64,000 nucleotides of DNA from Microcoleus sp. (GCA_042408215.1 JAYFMW010000005.1:192001-256000), one strand, 5' to 3'. Positions 30,090 to 45,501 are shown, numbered from the stretch's first letter. Numbers and translations are program-made. The notes: generated by a model from the sequence alone, not told the origin.

Positions 30090-31175
30090 CTACAAACCTA
30101 AATTGATGTAATCTAAACCCAATAGCTCCTCTATCTTATAAAGATTAACATCGCGGAGAGCTTCTTTGACACCAGCAACTCTCCGGGCACGCAAGGAAAA
30201 CAAAATCCCGGCATAGGGCAAATGCTTCACAGCTAACGCAAAATCTTTCTGAACTTCGATAGATTCATGCTGTCGGTAAACCTCCTCAATTTCTTGAACC
30301 AAACATTGATATTTGTCCTTAAATTGTTGGTACAATTCAGTCCACTCTGGAAAATAAGCTAAAAATTCTTCTCCTTCATTAGTTAAAACAATCTCGATCA
30401 TCCGGCGAGTAGAAAACCCTTCTCGGAGATGGGAAATCGCGACATATTGAGGAGATTTGACTTTAACTCGGTTGAAATCAGCGTCGCAGATAATATACCC
30501 TTCAGAATCCATCGGGTCTAAGTTTTGAGCCGCTTCGATCGCTTCTTTCCAGCTAGTTAAAGGATAGGATTTTACTAATTTCCATCCATATTTATTAGCC
30601 CAAATACTGGGGTTACTTTCTAGCAGTGTTTGAGTGTTGCGAACGCCGTGCAGCACGATTTGATTGTCGTTTTGCTGGACAACTATTCTATTGTAAGGCG
30701 TCATCAACTCAAAAATAAAACATTGGTCGGTTTCTGTCGGCAATTTATATCCTAACTCTTGCCATACTTTCCAAAAAAGTTCGGCAAAGCTAAATCCAAA
30801 ACCGTTAACTTCGCCCGCTGCGTCGGGAGTGCCGCTAGATTGCACTCTCCATTCTCCATTATAAAAATAGAGTGCAGTCAGAGAACCATCGAGTTTTTCA
30901 TAGACTTTGGCATTGTTCCAATCAATTGTAGCGGCGTGAATTTCTCCGTAGTTGAAAAATTTGTCGTAGGGATAAGAAACTATTTGCCAATCTTGGGATG
31001 AATCTAAAATGATACCTCGGCACTGTTGCACTATTTTTTCTCCCAGCGGGGATTCTATCTGCGAGTATTTCAGACAGACTAGATGAGGGTATTGCCGATC
31101 GCGCGTAACTTTGATCTGATAAGTTTCGGACAAATTTTCTAATCCGTGCTGGCGTAAATACTCTTGCAGTTCCAC
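30090..31175 (-). CDS. T4 RnlA/Rnl1-like ATP-dependent RNA ligase
   Basis: QCRGIIL, YDKFFN, motif I EKLDGS, III FEL, IV EGYII, V RVKVKS. Confidence 0.9.
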   Translation of the reverse strand: MELQEYLRQHGLENLSETYQIKVTRDRQYPHLVCLKYSQIESPLGEKIVQQCRGIILDSSQDWQIVSYPYDKFFNYGEIHAATIDWNNAKVYEKLDGSLTALYFYNGEWRVQSSGTPDAAGEVNGFGFSFAELFWKVWQELGYKLPTETDQCFIFELMTPYNRIVVQQNDNQIVLHGVRNTQTLLESNPSIWANKYGWKLVKSYPLTSWKEAIEAAQNLDPMDSEGYIICDADFNRVKVKSPQYVAISHLREGFSTRRMIEIVLTNEGEEFLAYFPEWTELYQQFKDKYQCLVQEIEEVYRQHESIEVQKDFALAVKHLPYAGILFSLRARRVAGVKEALRDVNLYKIEELLGLDYINLGL

Positions 31176-38026: not shown

Positions 38027-38455
38027 TTAATCAACAAATAAATCAAGAGGTAAATGACCATAAGTACCGGTAACTCCTGCTTCCTCAGCGGATTGGCACG
38101 ACACCAAAACGCCACGGTAAGTTCCGGGATAGCCCTCAACATAATACGACCCCTTCAAAGTATTAAATTTAATATAAACCGAACCCGCCAATGAAGAGAC
38201 AGCATTTGGTTCAAAAACAGGTTGATAGCCCAAAGCTTTTAAATAGGTTTCTAAAGCTAAAAAACCCTCATTTGTCGAAGATGCACAGACACCTAGCATT
38301 TGGTAATCTGACAAACTTGCTACCAGCAATATCGCTTCACGAAGCGCCTGTTTGTCTAATGGAGAAGCTACAGATTGCATATCTAGACAGGTGAAGTCTT
38401 TCAGGATTTGCTGTGCTTTTTCAACAGTTAAGTTAGTCAGATTTTGAGTAAACAT
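38027..38455 (-). CDS. DUF1824-like conserved cyanobacterial protein
   Basis: YIKFN, YRGVLVSCQ, TYGHLPLDLF. Confidence 0.75.
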   Translation of the reverse strand: MFTQNLTNLTVEKAQQILKDFTCLDMQSVASPLDKQALREAILLVASLSDYQMLGVCASSTNEGFLALETYLKALGYQPVFEPNAVSSLAGSVYIKFNTLKGSYYVEGYPGTYRGVLVSCQSAEEAGVTGTYGHLPLDLFVD

Positions 38456-38745
38456 GAATTGCTCTGATATTCCCAAAAATTACGATCGACACTTCCGCAC
38501 TCGTCAGCGGAACTCTGCCATTGCAAACCACAACCTTCCATCGACGGTGACAGTTGCACAGCTTCTAATTATACCATTGTGCGATCGAGCATTTTCTCTC
38601 TTTGTACCTTTGCAGTCAAATGTGCGATCGCCAGCATGACACAATCTACCTAGATTCTAAAGAGATCACAAAAATTTCCTCCCTATTGCTGAACTTGCCT
38701 CTATTAATGATAAACATAAATAGGACAAAAACCGAGGACGAGCCC

Positions 38746-39681
38746 ATGAGCAACAACCAATTGCTAGAAAACGTAAAAATCTTGCGAAAATTTCTATTTC
38801 GCCTGCTACACAAAGCCAAACTTACCTACTTAATCCTGATCTTTGTCATCAGTTTAGGTATTTCCGGCTGGAGTAGAGAATCTGCTACTCTCAGAATTCC
38901 TATTATCGGCTTTCACGACATTATAGATGCTCAAAAAACAGCCGACTTGCCACCTCGCAGACCCGCCTTTGAAAATGACTACACCAAACAAGATTTGTCA
39001 GTGTTTTTAGAATATTTATTTCAACAAAACTATTGGTTTTTATCATCTCAAGACTTGTATGTCTATTTCATAGACAAGTCTCAACCCATACCAGAGCAAC
39101 ACCAGGGTCAAAAACCAATTATGATTACCTTTGACGACGGCTACAAAGGCGTTCATACCAATGCACTTCCCCTCCTGAAAAAACTGTCGCTGCTCTATAA
39201 AGAAAACGGTAAATTTGTGTTATTCGTCAATCCTCACTTCTTGGGTATTGCTATGGGCGGAAAATTTTTGCCCCACACTACTTGCAACGATTTAAGAGAA
39301 GGATATCAAAAGGGTTTTTATGACATTCAATCTCACGGTTTCACTCACAAAAACTTAACTGAACTCAATGGGCAAGATTTAGAGTTAGAAATTTCTAAAT
39401 CTAAATTAGCTTTGAGAAAATGTATGGGCGACTTAGACAAAAATAAAATTATCGGCGCTCATATAGCCTATCCCTACGGCGCATCAGACAGCGAAGTGGA
39501 AAAGATTTTGCCTAAATATCATTTAACTGGCTTTTTGTACAATGACAGATTTTTGAGAGTACAGCGCCTGAGAAATAACTATCGTATCTCTCGTATAACT
39601 ACTGACAGAAATACGTCCCCTAGAGATTTAATTCGGGTAGCTCAAAAGGCTTCAACTTTCAGACAAAAAAACTGGTTTTAG
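38746..39681 (+). CDS. Polysaccharide deacetylase (NodB/CE4)
   Basis: PIIGFH, ITFDDG, QSHGFTH, AYPYG. Confidence 0.85.
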   Translation: MSNNQLLENVKILRKFLFRLLHKAKLTYLILIFVISLGISGWSRESATLRIPIIGFHDIIDAQKTADLPPRRPAFENDYTKQDLSVFLEYLFQQNYWFLSSQDLYVYFIDKSQPIPEQHQGQKPIMITFDDGYKGVHTNALPLLKKLSLLYKENGKFVLFVNPHFLGIAMGGKFLPHTTCNDLREGYQKGFYDIQSHGFTHKNLTELNGQDLELEISKSKLALRKCMGDLDKNKIIGAHIAYPYGASDSEVEKILPKYHLTGFLYNDRFLRVQRLRNNYRISRITTDRNTSPRDLIRVAQKASTFRQKNWF

Positions 39682-39708: not shown

Positions 39709-40024
39709 TACAGCGTATTCCAAGTTTATGAAGTAGGGACACTCCAGGAGCCCATTGGTGTCAACAACCAGCCTGAAAGCCTTGATAAATCTCGTTTTTA
39801 GCTGAGTCTAGATCCCCCTAAATCCCCCTTAAGAAGGGGGACTTAAAGAGGCTTCCTGTCCCCCCCTTCTTAAGGGGGGCTAGGGGGGATCTAGGCTTAA
39901 TAGTCAAACAGCAGTCTCTGACTGGGTTTGAAGTTAAGTTGACACAAAGAAGGGCTCTTGGAGTGTCCCTAGGGTGGGGATAGATCGATCTGGGGTGTCC
40001 TTCATAAATGTGGAATCTGCTGTA
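39709..40024. repeat. Four nested inverted-repeat elements
   Basis: Pairs 39709-39733/40000-40024, 39734-39753/39952-39971, 39755-39765/39938-39948; core 39808-39894. Confidence 0.8.
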
Positions 40025-40056
40025 TGTCCGCCGAGTTTTTACGGATTTTTTCAAGT

Positions 40057-40752
40057 TTAAATGAGCCCGCGTTTTTTCAACTTTGCTAGTGCATCTTCCG
40101 CTGCATTTTTTTCAGCATCTTTTTTACTTTTACCTTTACCTTCTCCATAGGGTTTCTCTGCGACATAAACTTTAGCGAGAAATTCGGGAGCGTGAGGTGC
40201 ACCTCCTGCTTGGATTGTCACATATTTGGGAGGAGTTGTGTCACCGCTGGCTTGTACCCATTCCTGAAAGCGGTTTTTTGAGTCTACAAGGTTTTTTGGC
40301 CCAGTATCCGACTGAGGATAAACCATACTATTAGCCACTGGAATAAACAGCTTTTTAACAAAGGCGCGGACAGGTGTAATGGTTGAGTCGAGATAGTACG
40401 CACCAATAATCGCTTCAAAAGTATCGCAAAGCAAAGAGGGATTTTGGCGACCTTTATCTTGTTCTGCCCCTTTTCCCAGGCGCATTAACTTACCTATACC
40501 TAGTTGTTCAGCAAACTTTGCTAGCTGATTTTGATCGACTAATCCAGAGCGCAAGCGAGTTAATTGAGCTTCGGTAAAATCTTCATAGTGCTTATACAAG
40601 ATTTCGCCGACTAGATAACCTAGCAGGGCGTCGCCAAGGAATTCTAGTCGCTCGTTGTGTTCGCCTGCTTCTGGGTATTCGTTAACGTAGGAACGGTGAG
40701 TGAGCGCGTGAATGAGAAGTGATTCATTTTTAAATTTGGGAAGTTTGTACAT
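40057..40752 (-). CDS. rnc: Ribonuclease III (stand-alone)
   Basis: ALTHRSY, NERLEFLGDA, CDTFEAIIGA, dsRBD GKSKKDAEKNAA. Confidence 0.92.
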   Translation of the reverse strand: MYKLPKFKNESLLIHALTHRSYVNEYPEAGEHNERLEFLGDALLGYLVGEILYKHYEDFTEAQLTRLRSGLVDQNQLAKFAEQLGIGKLMRLGKGAEQDKGRQNPSLLCDTFEAIIGAYYLDSTITPVRAFVKKLFIPVANSMVYPQSDTGPKNLVDSKNRFQEWVQASGDTTPPKYVTIQAGGAPHAPEFLAKVYVAEKPYGEGKGKSKKDAEKNAAEDALAKLKKRGLI

Positions 40753-40798
40753 TTTTATGTCTTGACTTGCTGGAAAATTAATGGCATCGAAAACCTGT

Positions 40799-42010
40799 CT
40801 ATATTAGCCGGAGTTTTTTTAGTGCGACTTCAGCAGCACGTTTTTCAGCTTCTTTTTTACTGCGACCACTACCTTTACCGTACACCTTACTATTTACGCG
40901 CACTTCAACAGCAAATTCTTTAGCATGATCTGGCCCTGCCTCCTGAATTGTGATGTATTGAGGGGTAATTGGCCCGATATTCTGCTGTACCCATTCCTGA
41001 AACCGATTTTTTGGGTCTACAAGAATGTTAGAGTCCGGTTCTGGCTGAGAAGAAATAATTTCTTCCACTACTGGCGTAAATAGCGGTTCTACAAAATCGC
41101 GGACTGCCTCAATGCCAGAATCCAGAAAATACGCGCCGATAATTGCTTCAAAAGTGTTGCTGAGTAAGGACTGCTTGGTTGTACCTCCACTTGTTGCCTC
41201 ACCCTTGCCTAACAGCATCCACTTACCGATATCCAAGTCGGCAGAAAACTTTGCCAATTGCTTGTCTTCCACCAATAAGGAACGCAGGCGAGTTAGTTCA
41301 CCTTCATTTTTATCTGAATAGTGGCGGTAGAGATATTCGCCACTTAGAAAAGTCAGCAAGGCATCGCCGAGAAATTCTAATAGCTCGTTGTCTTTGCTGA
41401 CTTTTCCAGGATTTTCGTAAAGGTAAGAGCGGTGAGTGAGTGCCTGATTTAGCAGATATGCCTCCTGAAAAGGCAGTTTTTTGAGGATTTTATCTAATCT
41501 CTCTTGAATGCGTTTTTCTTCACCAGGGGAGACAACTGAACCCTGGCGAGTTTCGTAACGGGTTTGCTCTTGAGACAAGATTCGCAGGACTTCTAGCTTT
41601 TGTTTTTCTATATTATCTGCCTGTTCTAATGCAGATACAGCCTTGAGGAGTATGGCAATACTGCCGAGAGCGCGATAGGTGTCTTCAGTGGAAAATAAGG
41701 AATTGTGTGCCCAGTTATTGCGGACTTCTATAAGTTCAAGCACTAGAGCTTTCTCACAAGGAGTTAAATGCTTTTTGAAGACATCATCCCACTGCTTTGA
41801 CACGACGGATAACAGGATCGAAATATCTTCACGCAGAATATTATCTATTTTTTTTATTTTGGGTATTTTATTGTTGGTCAAGCAATCTTGAGCCTTTGCC
41901 AGCCAGCGATCGCCGTGAACTGTCTGCATTTTCTGCTCGACATAAGGATACAATCCCTGACCTAGAATATTTAAAGCTTTGGTAACTCGTTCATGATTGC
42001 TAATAGCCAT
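40799..42010 (-). CDS. Swt1-like HEPN domain fused to ribonuclease III
   Basis: N-terminal MAISNHERV..., RNNWAH (Rx4H), DTYRAL; C-terminal NELLEFLGDA, SNTFEA, dsRBD. Confidence 0.85.
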   Translation of the reverse strand: MAISNHERVTKALNILGQGLYPYVEQKMQTVHGDRWLAKAQDCLTNNKIPKIKKIDNILREDISILLSVVSKQWDDVFKKHLTPCEKALVLELIEVRNNWAHNSLFSTEDTYRALGSIAILLKAVSALEQADNIEKQKLEVLRILSQEQTRYETRQGSVVSPGEEKRIQERLDKILKKLPFQEAYLLNQALTHRSYLYENPGKVSKDNELLEFLGDALLTFLSGEYLYRHYSDKNEGELTRLRSLLVEDKQLAKFSADLDIGKWMLLGKGEATSGGTTKQSLLSNTFEAIIGAYFLDSGIEAVRDFVEPLFTPVVEEIISSQPEPDSNILVDPKNRFQEWVQQNIGPITPQYITIQEAGPDHAKEFAVEVRVNSKVYGKGSGRSKKEAEKRAAEVALKKLRLI

Positions 42011-42194
42011 CTGTTGTCTTTCCCGAAATTTCTTTATTTCTTGTTGCTACATTTAAAGTTGTGAGTTTTTCGGACACATAAGGAGTGTTGCTTAAGGATT
42101 GGCAAGAGATTAATATTTCCAAACAAATAAGATTAAAAAGTAGGCATTAATGCTACTTCTGATTTACTTATATCACAGTCCTGGATGCACTCCG

Positions 42195-42584
42195 CCAAAG
42201 AAACCGGGTTTTTTACAGAATCTGTGGATTGTAACGCGTCTTCTCGCAAAAACCCGGTTGCTGGGCCCCCGTACAACCAAAGAAACCGGGTTTCGACTTC
42301 GCTCAACCAGCAAGTTTTTTGCGGTTTTTGCCGACTTTAACCAAGTATTGTCGCAAAAACCCGGTTTCTGGGCCCCGGTACAACCAAAGAAACCGGGTTT
42401 CGACTTCGCTCAACCAGCAAGTTTTTTACAGAATCTGTGGACTGTAACCAAGTATTGTCGCAAAAACCAGGTTTCTGGACCCCGGTACAACCAAAGAAAC
42501 CGGGTTTCGACTTCGCTCAACCAGCAAGTTTTTTACAGAATCTGTGGACTGTAACCAAGTATTGTCGCAAAAACCCGGTTTCTG
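42195..42584. repeat. Tandem array of four hairpin units (82 bp, then 107-bp period)
   Basis: Units start at 42195, 42277, 42384, 42491; each AGAAACCGGGTTT...AAACCCGGTTTCT or a near match. Confidence 0.85.
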
Positions 42585-42648
42585 ACTACCCGATCGCCCA
42601 CCTGAAAAAACCAAATGTAAAAATATGTTGCAAAATTTGTACAACTGT

Positions 42649-43815: not shown

Positions 43816-45501
43816 TTGAGGAAAAAGCTATTGTCAGGTACGTCCCACCCAAAGAAGCGTCGTCCATCCTTGGAGTCAACGAAAGAACTCTCCGACGTTG
43901 GGAAGAAGCAGGCAAAATCCAAGCGCTCAGAACACCGTCAGGACTCTGAAGGTATAACGTTGACAGGTTTGCAGCTCTCGCCACTAGAACCGACAACCGA
44001 ATTGCTGTTGTCTACGCCAGAGTCAGTAGTCGCACACAACAACCCGACCTCAACAGACAAGTCGCCCACCTTAGCAGTCTCTACCCGGAAGCCGAAATCT
44101 GTAGCGAAATCGGAGGCGGACTTAATTTCAAACGCAAAAAGCTTCTTTCCCTATTGGAACGAATCTTCAAAGGTGATGTCAGAATGGTTGTCGTTGCCCA
44201 CAAAGACCGATTGGCAAGATTCGGCTTTGACCTGTTCAAATGGCTCTGCGAGCAAAACCGGTGTGAACTCGTGGTACTCAACGAAACAAACCTTAGTCCA
44301 GAAGCAGAAATGGTTGAAGACATCCTCGCAATTCTCCACTATTTTAGCAGTAGATTGTACGGACTCAGAAAGTATAAATCTCAAATCAAAGAAGATCAGG
44401 ATTTACCCCACACCTGAGCTACACAAAGTTTGGCGTCAATGGCTGGCAGCCTGTCGTTATTGTTTCAATCAAGCAATAGCAATGCAGCGAAAAAAACGCT
44501 TAACCAAGTTAGAATTGCGTAACGAAGTTATGCGAGGTGATTTACCTGAATGGGTAAAAGAAACGCCTTGTCATATCAGGCAAAATGCTGTGTTTGATGC
44601 TCACAGAGCTTTCAAGGCAAGTTCAGACGCCAAGTTTCGTAGTATCAGAGATTACTCTCAAGCCATCAAATTTAACGATTCAAATTTCAGCTCATGCACT
44701 TGGTATCCTTCCTTAACCAAAGGATTAACATTTAAAGCTGCTGAAAATATTCCTGAATGCCAGCACGGGACTCAACTACTTTACTGCAAGGGTCGTTGGT
44801 TTGCGGTGTTTCCTGTACCAGTTACTGTTCACCCTACCGATGCAACTGGAATTATTGCATTAGATCCGGGCGTAAGAACATTTATGACCGGATTTGATGG
44901 CAATAAATTCATTGAGTTTGGAGGTGGTGACATGGGACGTATCACTCGTTTGTGTCAACACTTAGATGACTTAATGAGCCGAATATCTCAAGCCACGAAA
45001 CAGCAAAGAAAACGCATGAGACAAGCAGCTCATCGCATGAGAATACGCATTCGCAACTTAGTTGATGAGTGCCAAAAACAAACGGCTTGTTATCTAACTA
45101 GCAACTATCGAGTCATATTTCTTCCTACTTTTGAGTCTTCCCAAATGGTAGCCAAAGCACGAAGAAAGATTCGTTCAAAAACTGCTAGGGCGATGTTAAC
45201 TTGGGCCCATTACAGATTCAAGCAAACCATCAAACATCAGGCAAATATCAGAAACGCAAGCGTGATTGATGTAACTGAAGAATACACATCTAAAACTTGT
45301 ACCCATTGCGGTCACGTACATCATTCGTTAGGTGGTTCTAAAGTGTTTACTTGTCCTGAATGTGGCTACTCAATCCCACGGGATTATAATGGCGCTTTTG
45401 GTATTTTACTAAAAGCTTTGCGGGATACCGCCTCTATCTCTTATGAGGGCGATAGTGCTATCGTTACTTTGTCCGGTAATAGCCGGGTAAGTGTCGCGTA
45501 A
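43816..45501 (+). CDS. tnpB: IS607 TnpB, pro-Fanzor-like; true start uncertain, conserved part from ~44385
   Basis: KIRIYP, ALDPGVRTF, VTEEYTSKTC, CPEC, RDYNGA. Confidence 0.85.
   Translation: MRKKLLSGTSHPKKRRPSLESTKELSDVGKKQAKSKRSEHRQDSEGITLTGLQLSPLEPTTELLLSTPESVVAHNNPTSTDKSPTLAVSTRKPKSVAKSEADLISNAKSFFPYWNESSKVMSEWLSLPTKTDWQDSALTCSNGSASKTGVNSWYSTKQTLVQKQKWLKTSSQFSTILAVDCTDSESINLKSKKIRIYPTPELHKVWRQWLAACRYCFNQAIAMQRKKRLTKLELRNEVMRGDLPEWVKETPCHIRQNAVFDAHRAFKASSDAKFRSIRDYSQAIKFNDSNFSSCTWYPSLTKGLTFKAAENIPECQHGTQLLYCKGRWFAVFPVPVTVHPTDATGIIALDPGVRTFMTGFDGNKFIEFGGGDMGRITRLCQHLDDLMSRISQATKQQRKRMRQAAHRMRIRIRNLVDECQKQTACYLTSNYRVIFLPTFESSQMVAKARRKIRSKTARAMLTWAHYRFKQTIKHQANIRNASVIDVTEEYTSKTCTHCGHVHHSLGGSKVFTCPECGYSIPRDYNGAFGILLKALRDTASISYEGDSAIVTLSGNSRVSVA
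43830..44417 (+). pseudogene. tnpA: IS607 serine-recombinase TnpA with in-frame TGA at 43947-43949
   Basis: MerR-like HTH (LGVNERTLRRWE..RTPSGL*RY), YARVSS, HKDRLARFGF, FSSRLYGLRKY. Confidence 0.85.

Follow-up and report, generated by a model that had tools for sequence, protein, structure and literature searches.

What does a ribonuclease III (RNase III) do with a second nuclease domain at its N terminus, and why should another RNase III gene lie directly behind it? The question is raised by two genes in a 64,000-nt stretch of Microcoleus sp. DNA (GCA_042408215.1 JAYFMW010000005.1:192001-256000; hereafter the window, to which coordinates refer unless a contig or locus is named). Gene 1 joins a Swt1-like HEPN domain to an RNase III catalytic domain and a double-stranded RNA-binding domain (dsRBD); gene 2 is a stand-alone RNase III. 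An initial annotation had taken the pair for a candidate ribonuclease system that senses double-stranded RNA (dsRNA). We propose to read genes 1 and 2 together as a single allele of a ribonuclease slot that is polymorphic in the genus, and in which an RNase III would be combined with an exchangeable single-strand RNase for the destruction of duplex RNA, and we give this reading a probability of about 0.45.

The two open reading frames (ORFs), the 46-bp spacing and the motifs listed in the initial annotation (RNNWAH, ELLEFLGD and SNTFE in gene 1; ERLEFLGD and CDTFE in gene 2) were found as described. Profile searches agreed, gene 1 matching HEPN_Swt1, RNase III and dsrm, and gene 2 the latter two. 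The HEPN_Swt1 match (PF18731; E 4e-33, 114.6 bits against a cut-off of 27.5) is the only one in this genome. Both genes pass the TIGR02191 cut-off of 166.25 bits (gene 1, 228.9; gene 2, 230.1), and their RNase III parts are 55% identical. Residues E209, E212, D216, E236 and E288 of gene 1 correspond to E38, E41, D45, E65 and E117 of the Escherichia coli enzyme, whose numbering we use below for RNase III; L210 and N285 occupy the R39 and D114 positions, at which gene 2 has Arg and Asp. An AlphaFold monomer of gene 1 (41-sequence alignment) had a mean predicted local distance difference test score (pLDDT) of 88.1 but a predicted template-modelling score of 0.46, so that the domains are modelled with confidence and their mutual arrangement is not. 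Fold matches of this full-length model reached only the RNase III part. The HEPN domain modelled in isolation from a single sequence (pLDDT 52.9) gave generic helical matches only (best Z 6.7), and by sequence it had no match in the PDB (best E 0.4). The Atlas yielded nothing beyond the own cluster, with 57 members. The genome's other RNase IIIs include a distant full copy on C20, about 31-33% identical. On C12 of G000 (64732-65757, plus strand) a 341-aa ORF carries a degenerate RNase III domain whose signature has lost the acidic residues, and partial matches resembling it occur in other genomes of the genus.

The evidence for an exchangeable slot comes from the genus itself. Among 76 genomes surveyed, 15 carry the tandem, one carries the fusion alone, 57 have another single RNase III that is 63-70% like gene 2, and three, which are 83-86% complete, gave no match. 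We examined 21 of the 57 non-fusion genomes, picked by availability, and in all 21 the locus encodes an RNase III of the Ser type, preceded just upstream by an NYN gene and with the DUF1824 gene downstream. The notion that fusion-less relatives simply keep gene 2 is thus wrong, as they have the Ser-type enzyme behind NYN instead. Pfam confirmed the NYN assignment for seven of seven same-genus proteins submitted. No NYN gene was found within 1.5 kb of eight tandem fusions or at seven further tandem loci, and an NYN query on five tandem genomes, run without a positive control, was negative in all five; the genome of the window has five other PF01936 matches. When the window is compared with two NYN-allele loci (L256, L259), DNA identity is 84-87% over 40034-40288, low or absent from there to about 42607, and 78-82% beyond that point. 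About 2.3 kb has therefore been exchanged.

The NYN genes are also highly variable. Across 14 genomes of the genus the NYN domains are on average 48% identical (29-99%), while in the same genomes the adjacent RNase III averages 95% and DUF1824 92%. These hypervariable NYN genes upstream of RNase III (L249-L262) mostly keep their acidic motifs, and we regard them as candidate diversifying nucleases. On an rpoB tree of 30 genomes (16 HEPN and 14 NYN carriers; rough bootstrap values) the allele requires 11 changes, against a mean of 10.2 after shuffling (397 of 500 shuffles were as low). At least four changes are forced by well-supported branches, and a single clade for the allele is rejected by the approximately unbiased test (p-AU 2e-31).

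The DNA of gene 2 is 85-100% identical to that of a congener's gene 2 over nt 1-480 and 57-70% over the dsRBD, and the dsRBD is 78-88% like the fusion of genome G195. By these comparisons gene 2 is a mosaic, combining the catalytic domain of the HEPN allele with a dsRBD that resembles the one encoded by the resident gene where the other allele is present. Taken together, the tree and the DNA alignments show, as far as genome comparison can, that the alleles replace one another repeatedly and that a crossover lies inside the dsRBD region of the resident gene. At another locus (L113:4354-6533, minus strand; genome G456) an NYN gene, a solo RNase III and a fusion are adjacent. Between solo and fusion, DNA identity reaches 93-98% in the dsRBD and nowhere else, a pattern that suggests conversion of one neighbour by the other.

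Beyond the genus the tandem arrangement disappears. In an order-level survey of 401 genomes the full-length fusion is patchy, being present in 37 including this one; one further fusion is frameshifted, and that of G195 fell under the cut-off through an internal deletion. The latter (L051:7663-8649, minus strand) lacks some 80 residues of its RNase III domain, the E117 position included, and its genome yielded no further enzyme of the class; it is either a real deletion or a misassembly. With gene 2 as query, a solo gene lies directly downstream of eight of the 37 fusions, all in this genus, and of none of the 29 outside it. Among those 29 the solo gene is directly upstream in one, about 2 kb away in one, unlinked in 14 and lacking in 13, where lacking means that the query matched no full RNase III of the class besides the fusion (some of these genomes are drafts, but G020 and G225 consist of nine and three contigs). 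In G706 and L181 a lone fusion is found at the very locus described here. Judged by this distribution, the tandem is a genus-level allele and not a conserved two-gene machine. In Nostoc records the fusion sits at an Mg-chelatase/Uma2 locus at which other relatives carry a HEPN-less enzyme; these sole fusions could have arisen either by collapse of an earlier tandem or from an ancestral fusion with repeated loss of the HEPN.

NYN recurs beside RNase III outside the genus too, within 1.5 kb of 14 of 30 stand-alone RNase III loci (five supplied queries) and of none of 13 sole fusions. In seven genomes of another genus (L100-L106, e.g. L100:3824-4987, minus strand) and at L200:2006-3235 the two are fused as NYN-RNase III-dsRBD proteins of 386-409 aa. 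This second two-headed RNase III architecture did not appear in the literature that we searched. Because NYN is found adjacent to or fused with RNase III, and HEPN fused to it, this class of RNase III has been coupled repeatedly to a second, exchangeable nuclease.

Are both halves of gene 1 likely to be active? Motifs were aligned in the query and 116 homologs, all 370 aa or longer (three shorter ones of 120 listed were dropped), a list biased towards close relatives. The HEPN residues E92 and R97 are invariant (117/117) and H102 is kept in 115; R and H are both present in all 37 genome-derived fusions, so that the Rx4H motif is conserved. In the RNase III domain, E41 is kept in 116 of 117 homologs, and D45 and E117 in all. 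Two positions vary. At R39 the homologs have Leu (47), Arg (39), Gln (29) or Cys (2), and at D114 Asn (104), Asp (12) or Gly (1); the 37 genome-derived fusions have Asn (31), Ser (4), Ala (1) or Asp (1) at D114, and 38 aligned stand-alone relatives have Ser (20) or Asp (18). Non-synonymous substitution proceeds at 0.36 of the synonymous rate in HEPN and at 0.12 in the RNase III domain (28 pairs among eight same-genus genes, values biased by recombination), which, on the gene sequences, shows gene 1 to be under purifying selection.

Scanning of E. coli RNase III found very low tolerance at six acidic residues with the exception of D114 (PMC10037077). In supplement S1 of that study R39L has a fitness of 0.976 (counts 515 to 525), D114N rises from 249 to 284 and E38L falls from 104 to 17; the R39L and D114N figures each rest on one codon and replica 1, with columns counted by hand, and concern single changes only. 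A fitness readout of this kind is buffered against partial loss, which weighs against reading the tolerance of D114 and R39 as full activity, and D114A has been tabulated as weak in vitro (PMC8708148). Gene 1 is nevertheless probably an active RNase III: it retains E41, D45 and E117, and in E. coli both R39L and D114N, made singly, come out as near neutral. We reject a catalytically dead gene 1 on the strength of the residue conservation together with these single-change data. Nor do the data support reading the odd residues as the mark of a catalytically asymmetric subunit, as had been suggested, since the three acidic residues are retained and D114 is the one active-site position that tolerates change. 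Asn or Leu at positions 114 and 39 does not define activity, both being near neutral singly and 20 stand-alone relatives having Ser at 114; cyanobacterial RNase IIIs often carry Asn or Ser there, and neither residue should be taken to mean that the enzyme is inactive.

By its catalytic domain, gene 1 falls with other fusions and not with gene 2; this and the 55% identity dispose of a recent local duplication of gene 2. Residues 1-155 are about 43-54% identical to the N termini of proteins of 1,000-1,180 aa, two of which were confirmed as DUF499 ATPases. In a tree the fusion HEPNs cluster apart from those attached to other proteins, DUF499, ParA-like and vWA proteins among them, except that a long-branch outsider is placed within the fusion group; a single clade is not rejected (p-AU 0.55). 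Full-length named matches of the fusion are all cyanobacterial. Elsewhere (L150, L157, L158, L159, L160, L161) Swt1-like HEPN domains are found at the N termini of ParA-like, vWA, NACHT-like and phosphonate-binding-domain proteins.

HEPN active sites form across dimers and cut single-stranded RNA, a cleavage expected to need no metal. We picture gene 1 as a homodimer whose dsRBD and RNase III domains would bind and cut duplex RNA (sense-antisense, plasmid or phage RNA), while the two tethered HEPN domains would form one composite site and cut the single-stranded flanks or the released pieces; the RNA would thereby be destroyed and not merely trimmed. Gene 2 would be an ordinary RNase III carried in the same tract, replacing the resident enzyme that is lost in the swap, and would not be an obligate partner of gene 1, although mixed dimers of the two may form within this genus. 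The turnover of the single-strand nuclease would be explained most simply by selection from mobile elements or phages. The defence role put forward in the initial annotation is plausible, allele swapping adds weight to it, and a role in genetic conflict seems probable from the genomic pattern.

A number of observations weigh against this reading. Neither gene matches a family in the PADLOC 2.0 models (0 at E 0.1), and the locus lies among housekeeping genes, two of which we take to be glycogen synthase and hemC. The 130 neighbours of 36 fusion loci, which were not set against control loci, hold few genes that clearly belong to defence or toxin-antitoxin systems. Searches of plasmids (none of 52 matches covers 80%) and of phages (0/13 matches) gave no full-length fusion. 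Four metatranscriptome contig sets cover both genes sparsely and the flanking repeats heavily, and therefore cannot show transcription of genes 1 and 2. Occurring also on ParA-like, vWA, NACHT and solute-binding proteins, the HEPN may be a domain that is appended promiscuously. The rpoB tree represents one gene, itself possibly recombining. Outside the genus NYN and HEPN are not exclusive, NYN adjoining three of 16 'extra' fusions. Finally, the characterised model-strain RNase IIIs named below are compared with genes 1 and 2 as a class and not as established orthologs.

A first alternative is a housekeeping enzyme of RNA maturation or turnover, in which HEPN or NYN would be an accessory trimmer or near-dispensable and alleles would turn over neutrally through recombination between paralogs. 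This alternative survives best, and we consider it rather unlikely. Thirteen of 37 genomes have no RNase III of the class apart from the fusion, the neighbours of the fusion are mostly housekeeping genes, the Nostoc-like fusion shares its locus with the HEPN-less enzyme of relatives, and bacterial NYN proteins have been tied by neighbourhood to tRNA or rRNA processing (PMC5499597). An enzyme with a fixed substrate, however, should not vary between 29 and 99% within a genus beside a neighbour at 95%, and neither repeated swapping nor the patchiness of the fusion across the order (37/401) is expected of a processing enzyme. Moreover, the closest relatives of this HEPN sit on DUF499 defence ATPases.

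Swapping and hypervariability would also fit defence in the form first proposed, namely abortive infection or dormancy, in which dsRNA bound by the dsRBD and RNase III activates a HEPN dimer that cuts host RNA indiscriminately. The HEPN motif is intact, and on DUF499 ATPases the same family is a proposed, though not demonstrated, suicide effector of last resort (PMC12839542). A toxin of this kind would presumably be dangerous in the 13 genomes in which the fusion is the sole enzyme of its class, and in which host dsRNA is presumably constant; moreover, the locus is not set in a defence island and matches nothing in PADLOC. The RNase III homodimer assembles in the absence of RNA. That dsRNA dimerises the HEPN is accordingly doubtful, and activation would have to be conformational. 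We therefore hold abortive infection to be unlikely, and are no less sceptical of a one-protein sensor-effector, in which RNase III-dsRBD would detect a foreign duplex and switch on HEPN or NYN to halt the infected cell, with the effector as the interchangeable allele of a fixed locus next to a core RNase III gene.

Could the tract instead be selfish, its HEPN a toxin held low by the RNase III of the cassette, which would cut its own transcript or an antisense duplex, and the whole spreading by homologous replacement? It does spread sideways in the genus and displaces the resident allele; E. coli RNase III cleaves its own 5' untranslated region (PMC10037077), and that of Bacillus subtilis silences prophage toxin genes (PMC10989914). 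The HEPN allele is in the minority, however (16/76), and occurs alongside the NYN allele throughout the tree, and no regulatory RNA was found in the window (0 Rfam matches), which leaves such an addiction cassette very improbable.

Least credible of all is an obligate, asymmetric Dicer/Drosha-like heterodimer of genes 1 and 2, the second model of the initial annotation: within the genus the gene-2 type does occur solely directly behind the fusion (15/15) and accompanies 15 of 16 fusions, the first domain of Drosha likewise has Asn at the D114 position, and artificial E. coli heterodimers have been cited as functional (PMC5786227), but linkage inside one recombination tract explains the co-occurrence, gene 1 keeps E41, D45 and E117, lone fusions exist at this very locus, and an obligate heterodimer is unlikely for the fusion family as a whole because the tandem is confined to one genus, with 14 of 37 fusions unlinked to a solo enzyme and 13 of 37 without a partner of the class.

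Features of the locus (window coordinates; strand given as - or +, or as. where none applies)
Feature	Position	Strand	Basis
Gene 1, Swt1-like HEPN - RNase III - dsRBD fusion, 403 aa	40799..42010	-	ORF + profile matches
Swt1-like HEPN domain of gene 1, aa 11-126	41633..41980	-	PF18731 match
HEPN Rx4H motif (RNNWAH), R97-H102, conserved E92 upstream	41705..41722	-	Homolog alignment
Gene 1 RNase III domain, aa 185-309	41084..41458	-	Profile match
Gene 1 signature ELLEFLGD, Leu at R39 position	41363..41386	-	Homolog alignment
Gene 1 SNTFE motif, Asn at D114 position	41147..41161	-	Homolog alignment
Gene 1 dsRBD, aa 333-400	40811..41014	-	dsrm profile match
Intergenic gap gene 1/gene 2, 46 bp	40753..40798	.	
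Gene 2, stand-alone RNase III + dsRBD, 231 aa, canonical motifs	40057..40752	-	ORF + profiles
Gene 2 dsRBD, aa 159-225, inside stretch common to NYN allele	40078..40278	-	dsrm profile; DNA comparison
Approximate exchanged tract; relatives have NYN gene + 5' part of Ser-type RNase III	40289..42606	.	
DUF1824 gene, downstream anchor kept in both alleles	38027..38476	-	
Polysaccharide deacetylase, convergent neighbour, in some relatives only	38602..39681	+	
107-bp repeats in tandem (3-4 copies), upstream of gene 1; element present in many copies	42208..42584	.	
Nested inverted repeats downstream of gene 2	39709..40024	.	

Genes 1 and 2, from their arrangement, are likely to be co-transcribed; a promoter and terminator scan of their strand gave nothing above chance. 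We take the nested inverted repeats at 39709-40024 to be an element like a miniature inverted-repeat transposable element. These and the 107-bp tandem repeats are abundant in unrelated contigs of the same metatranscriptome runs, and there is no evidence that the 107-bp repeats belong to the ribonuclease system. On the minus strand at 30090-31175, about 9 kb from the pair, the window encodes a T4 Rnl1-like RNA ligase (PF09511, E 4e-21), which could repair RNA breaks. At 43816-45501 on the plus strand a long ORF contains a TnpB-like gene (Cas12f1-like TNB and IS605 helix-turn-helix domains); a short ORF overlapping it (44154-44417) is presumably a resolvase fragment. Around fusions in other genomes, PADLOC matches among the 130 neighbours were mostly Uma2-type (10 loci), generic helicase, kinase and TnpB, and a clear defence system, HEC-01A/B, stood beside one fusion locus only (L038). 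Further neighbours of defence or toxin-antitoxin type were an MNT at L047, an IetA-like gene at L118 and a UvrD-DarT-hydrolase group at L048, where genes for a UvrD helicase, a DarT-like ADP-ribosyltransferase and an ADP-ribosylglycohydrolase-glyoxalase follow one another beside the fusion (L048:10123-14033, plus strand; G173).

The new finding is the polymorphism of the locus within the genus, HEPN and hypervariable NYN cassettes being exchanged on an RNase III. The question thus shifts from an odd fusion to an RNase III that is repeatedly paired with an exchangeable single-strand nuclease, HEPN when fused, NYN when adjacent or fused. Swapping of alleles is the behaviour of a conflict locus, yet it takes place on a core RNA-turnover enzyme. 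If our reading is correct, it would mean an RNA-level response to duplex RNA in cyanobacteria, and it would give NYN/LabA-like proteins and Swt1-like HEPN domains a function that can be tested; the literature that we found, as far as it was available, reports no nuclease test of either in these contexts.

How does the locus compare with known systems? Cyanobacterial genomes normally have one to three RNase III genes (PMC10989914), and Alr0280/All4107, Slr1646/Slr0346 and A0061/A2542 likewise consist of RNase III and dsRBD; compared with bacterial class I RNase III, gene 1 has the additional HEPN and Leu and Asn at the R39 and D114 positions. RNase III homodimers cut duplex RNA (PMC10037077), and within the phylum Alr0280 clears antisense duplexes (PMC11288750) and A2542 a plasmid counter-transcribed RNA duplex (PMC5829567). 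Drosha and Dicer resemble the pair in having two RNase III domains close together, with Asn at D114 in the first domain of Drosha; they differ in that the pair here is not conserved, both of its domains look catalytic and it has no PAZ or helicase domain. The Tha-1 HEPN system was considered as a precedent and set aside, control by RNase III reportedly not being its main mechanism (PMC11087260). The Type-1 BREX-related DUF499 'Hma' systems (PMC12839542) share the HEPN family, with the identity over residues 1-155 given above, but the locus here lacks the DUF499 ATPase, methylase and helicase, and the fusion HEPNs form a tree group of their own. The NYN/LabA-like proteins (PF01936), which in relatives fill this slot either with a gene of their own or fused to RNase III, have an unrelated, PIN-like fold, and the function of NYN.COG1432 is given as unknown (PMC5499597).

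Our searches, which left most subscription journals aside, found no experimental study of the fusion and nothing on the tandem pair or on its NYN alternative. The architecture of gene 1 itself had been called undescribed, which is wrong: it is a known prediction, since Anantharaman et al. (2013; PMC3710099) give, for the fusions of Swt1-like HEPN, the entry 'RNASEIII and DSRBD (Cyanobacteria), active' and propose a 'two-headed RNase' making multiple cuts on dsRNA, with gi 119489560 from Lyngbya as the example. By its description, that architecture agrees with gene 1 in domain order, phylum and a HEPN predicted to be active. To that prediction, which in the available parts of the paper is made without them, the present locus and its relatives add the second RNase III, the variation between Asp, Asn and Ser, sole-copy fusions and the exchange with NYN.

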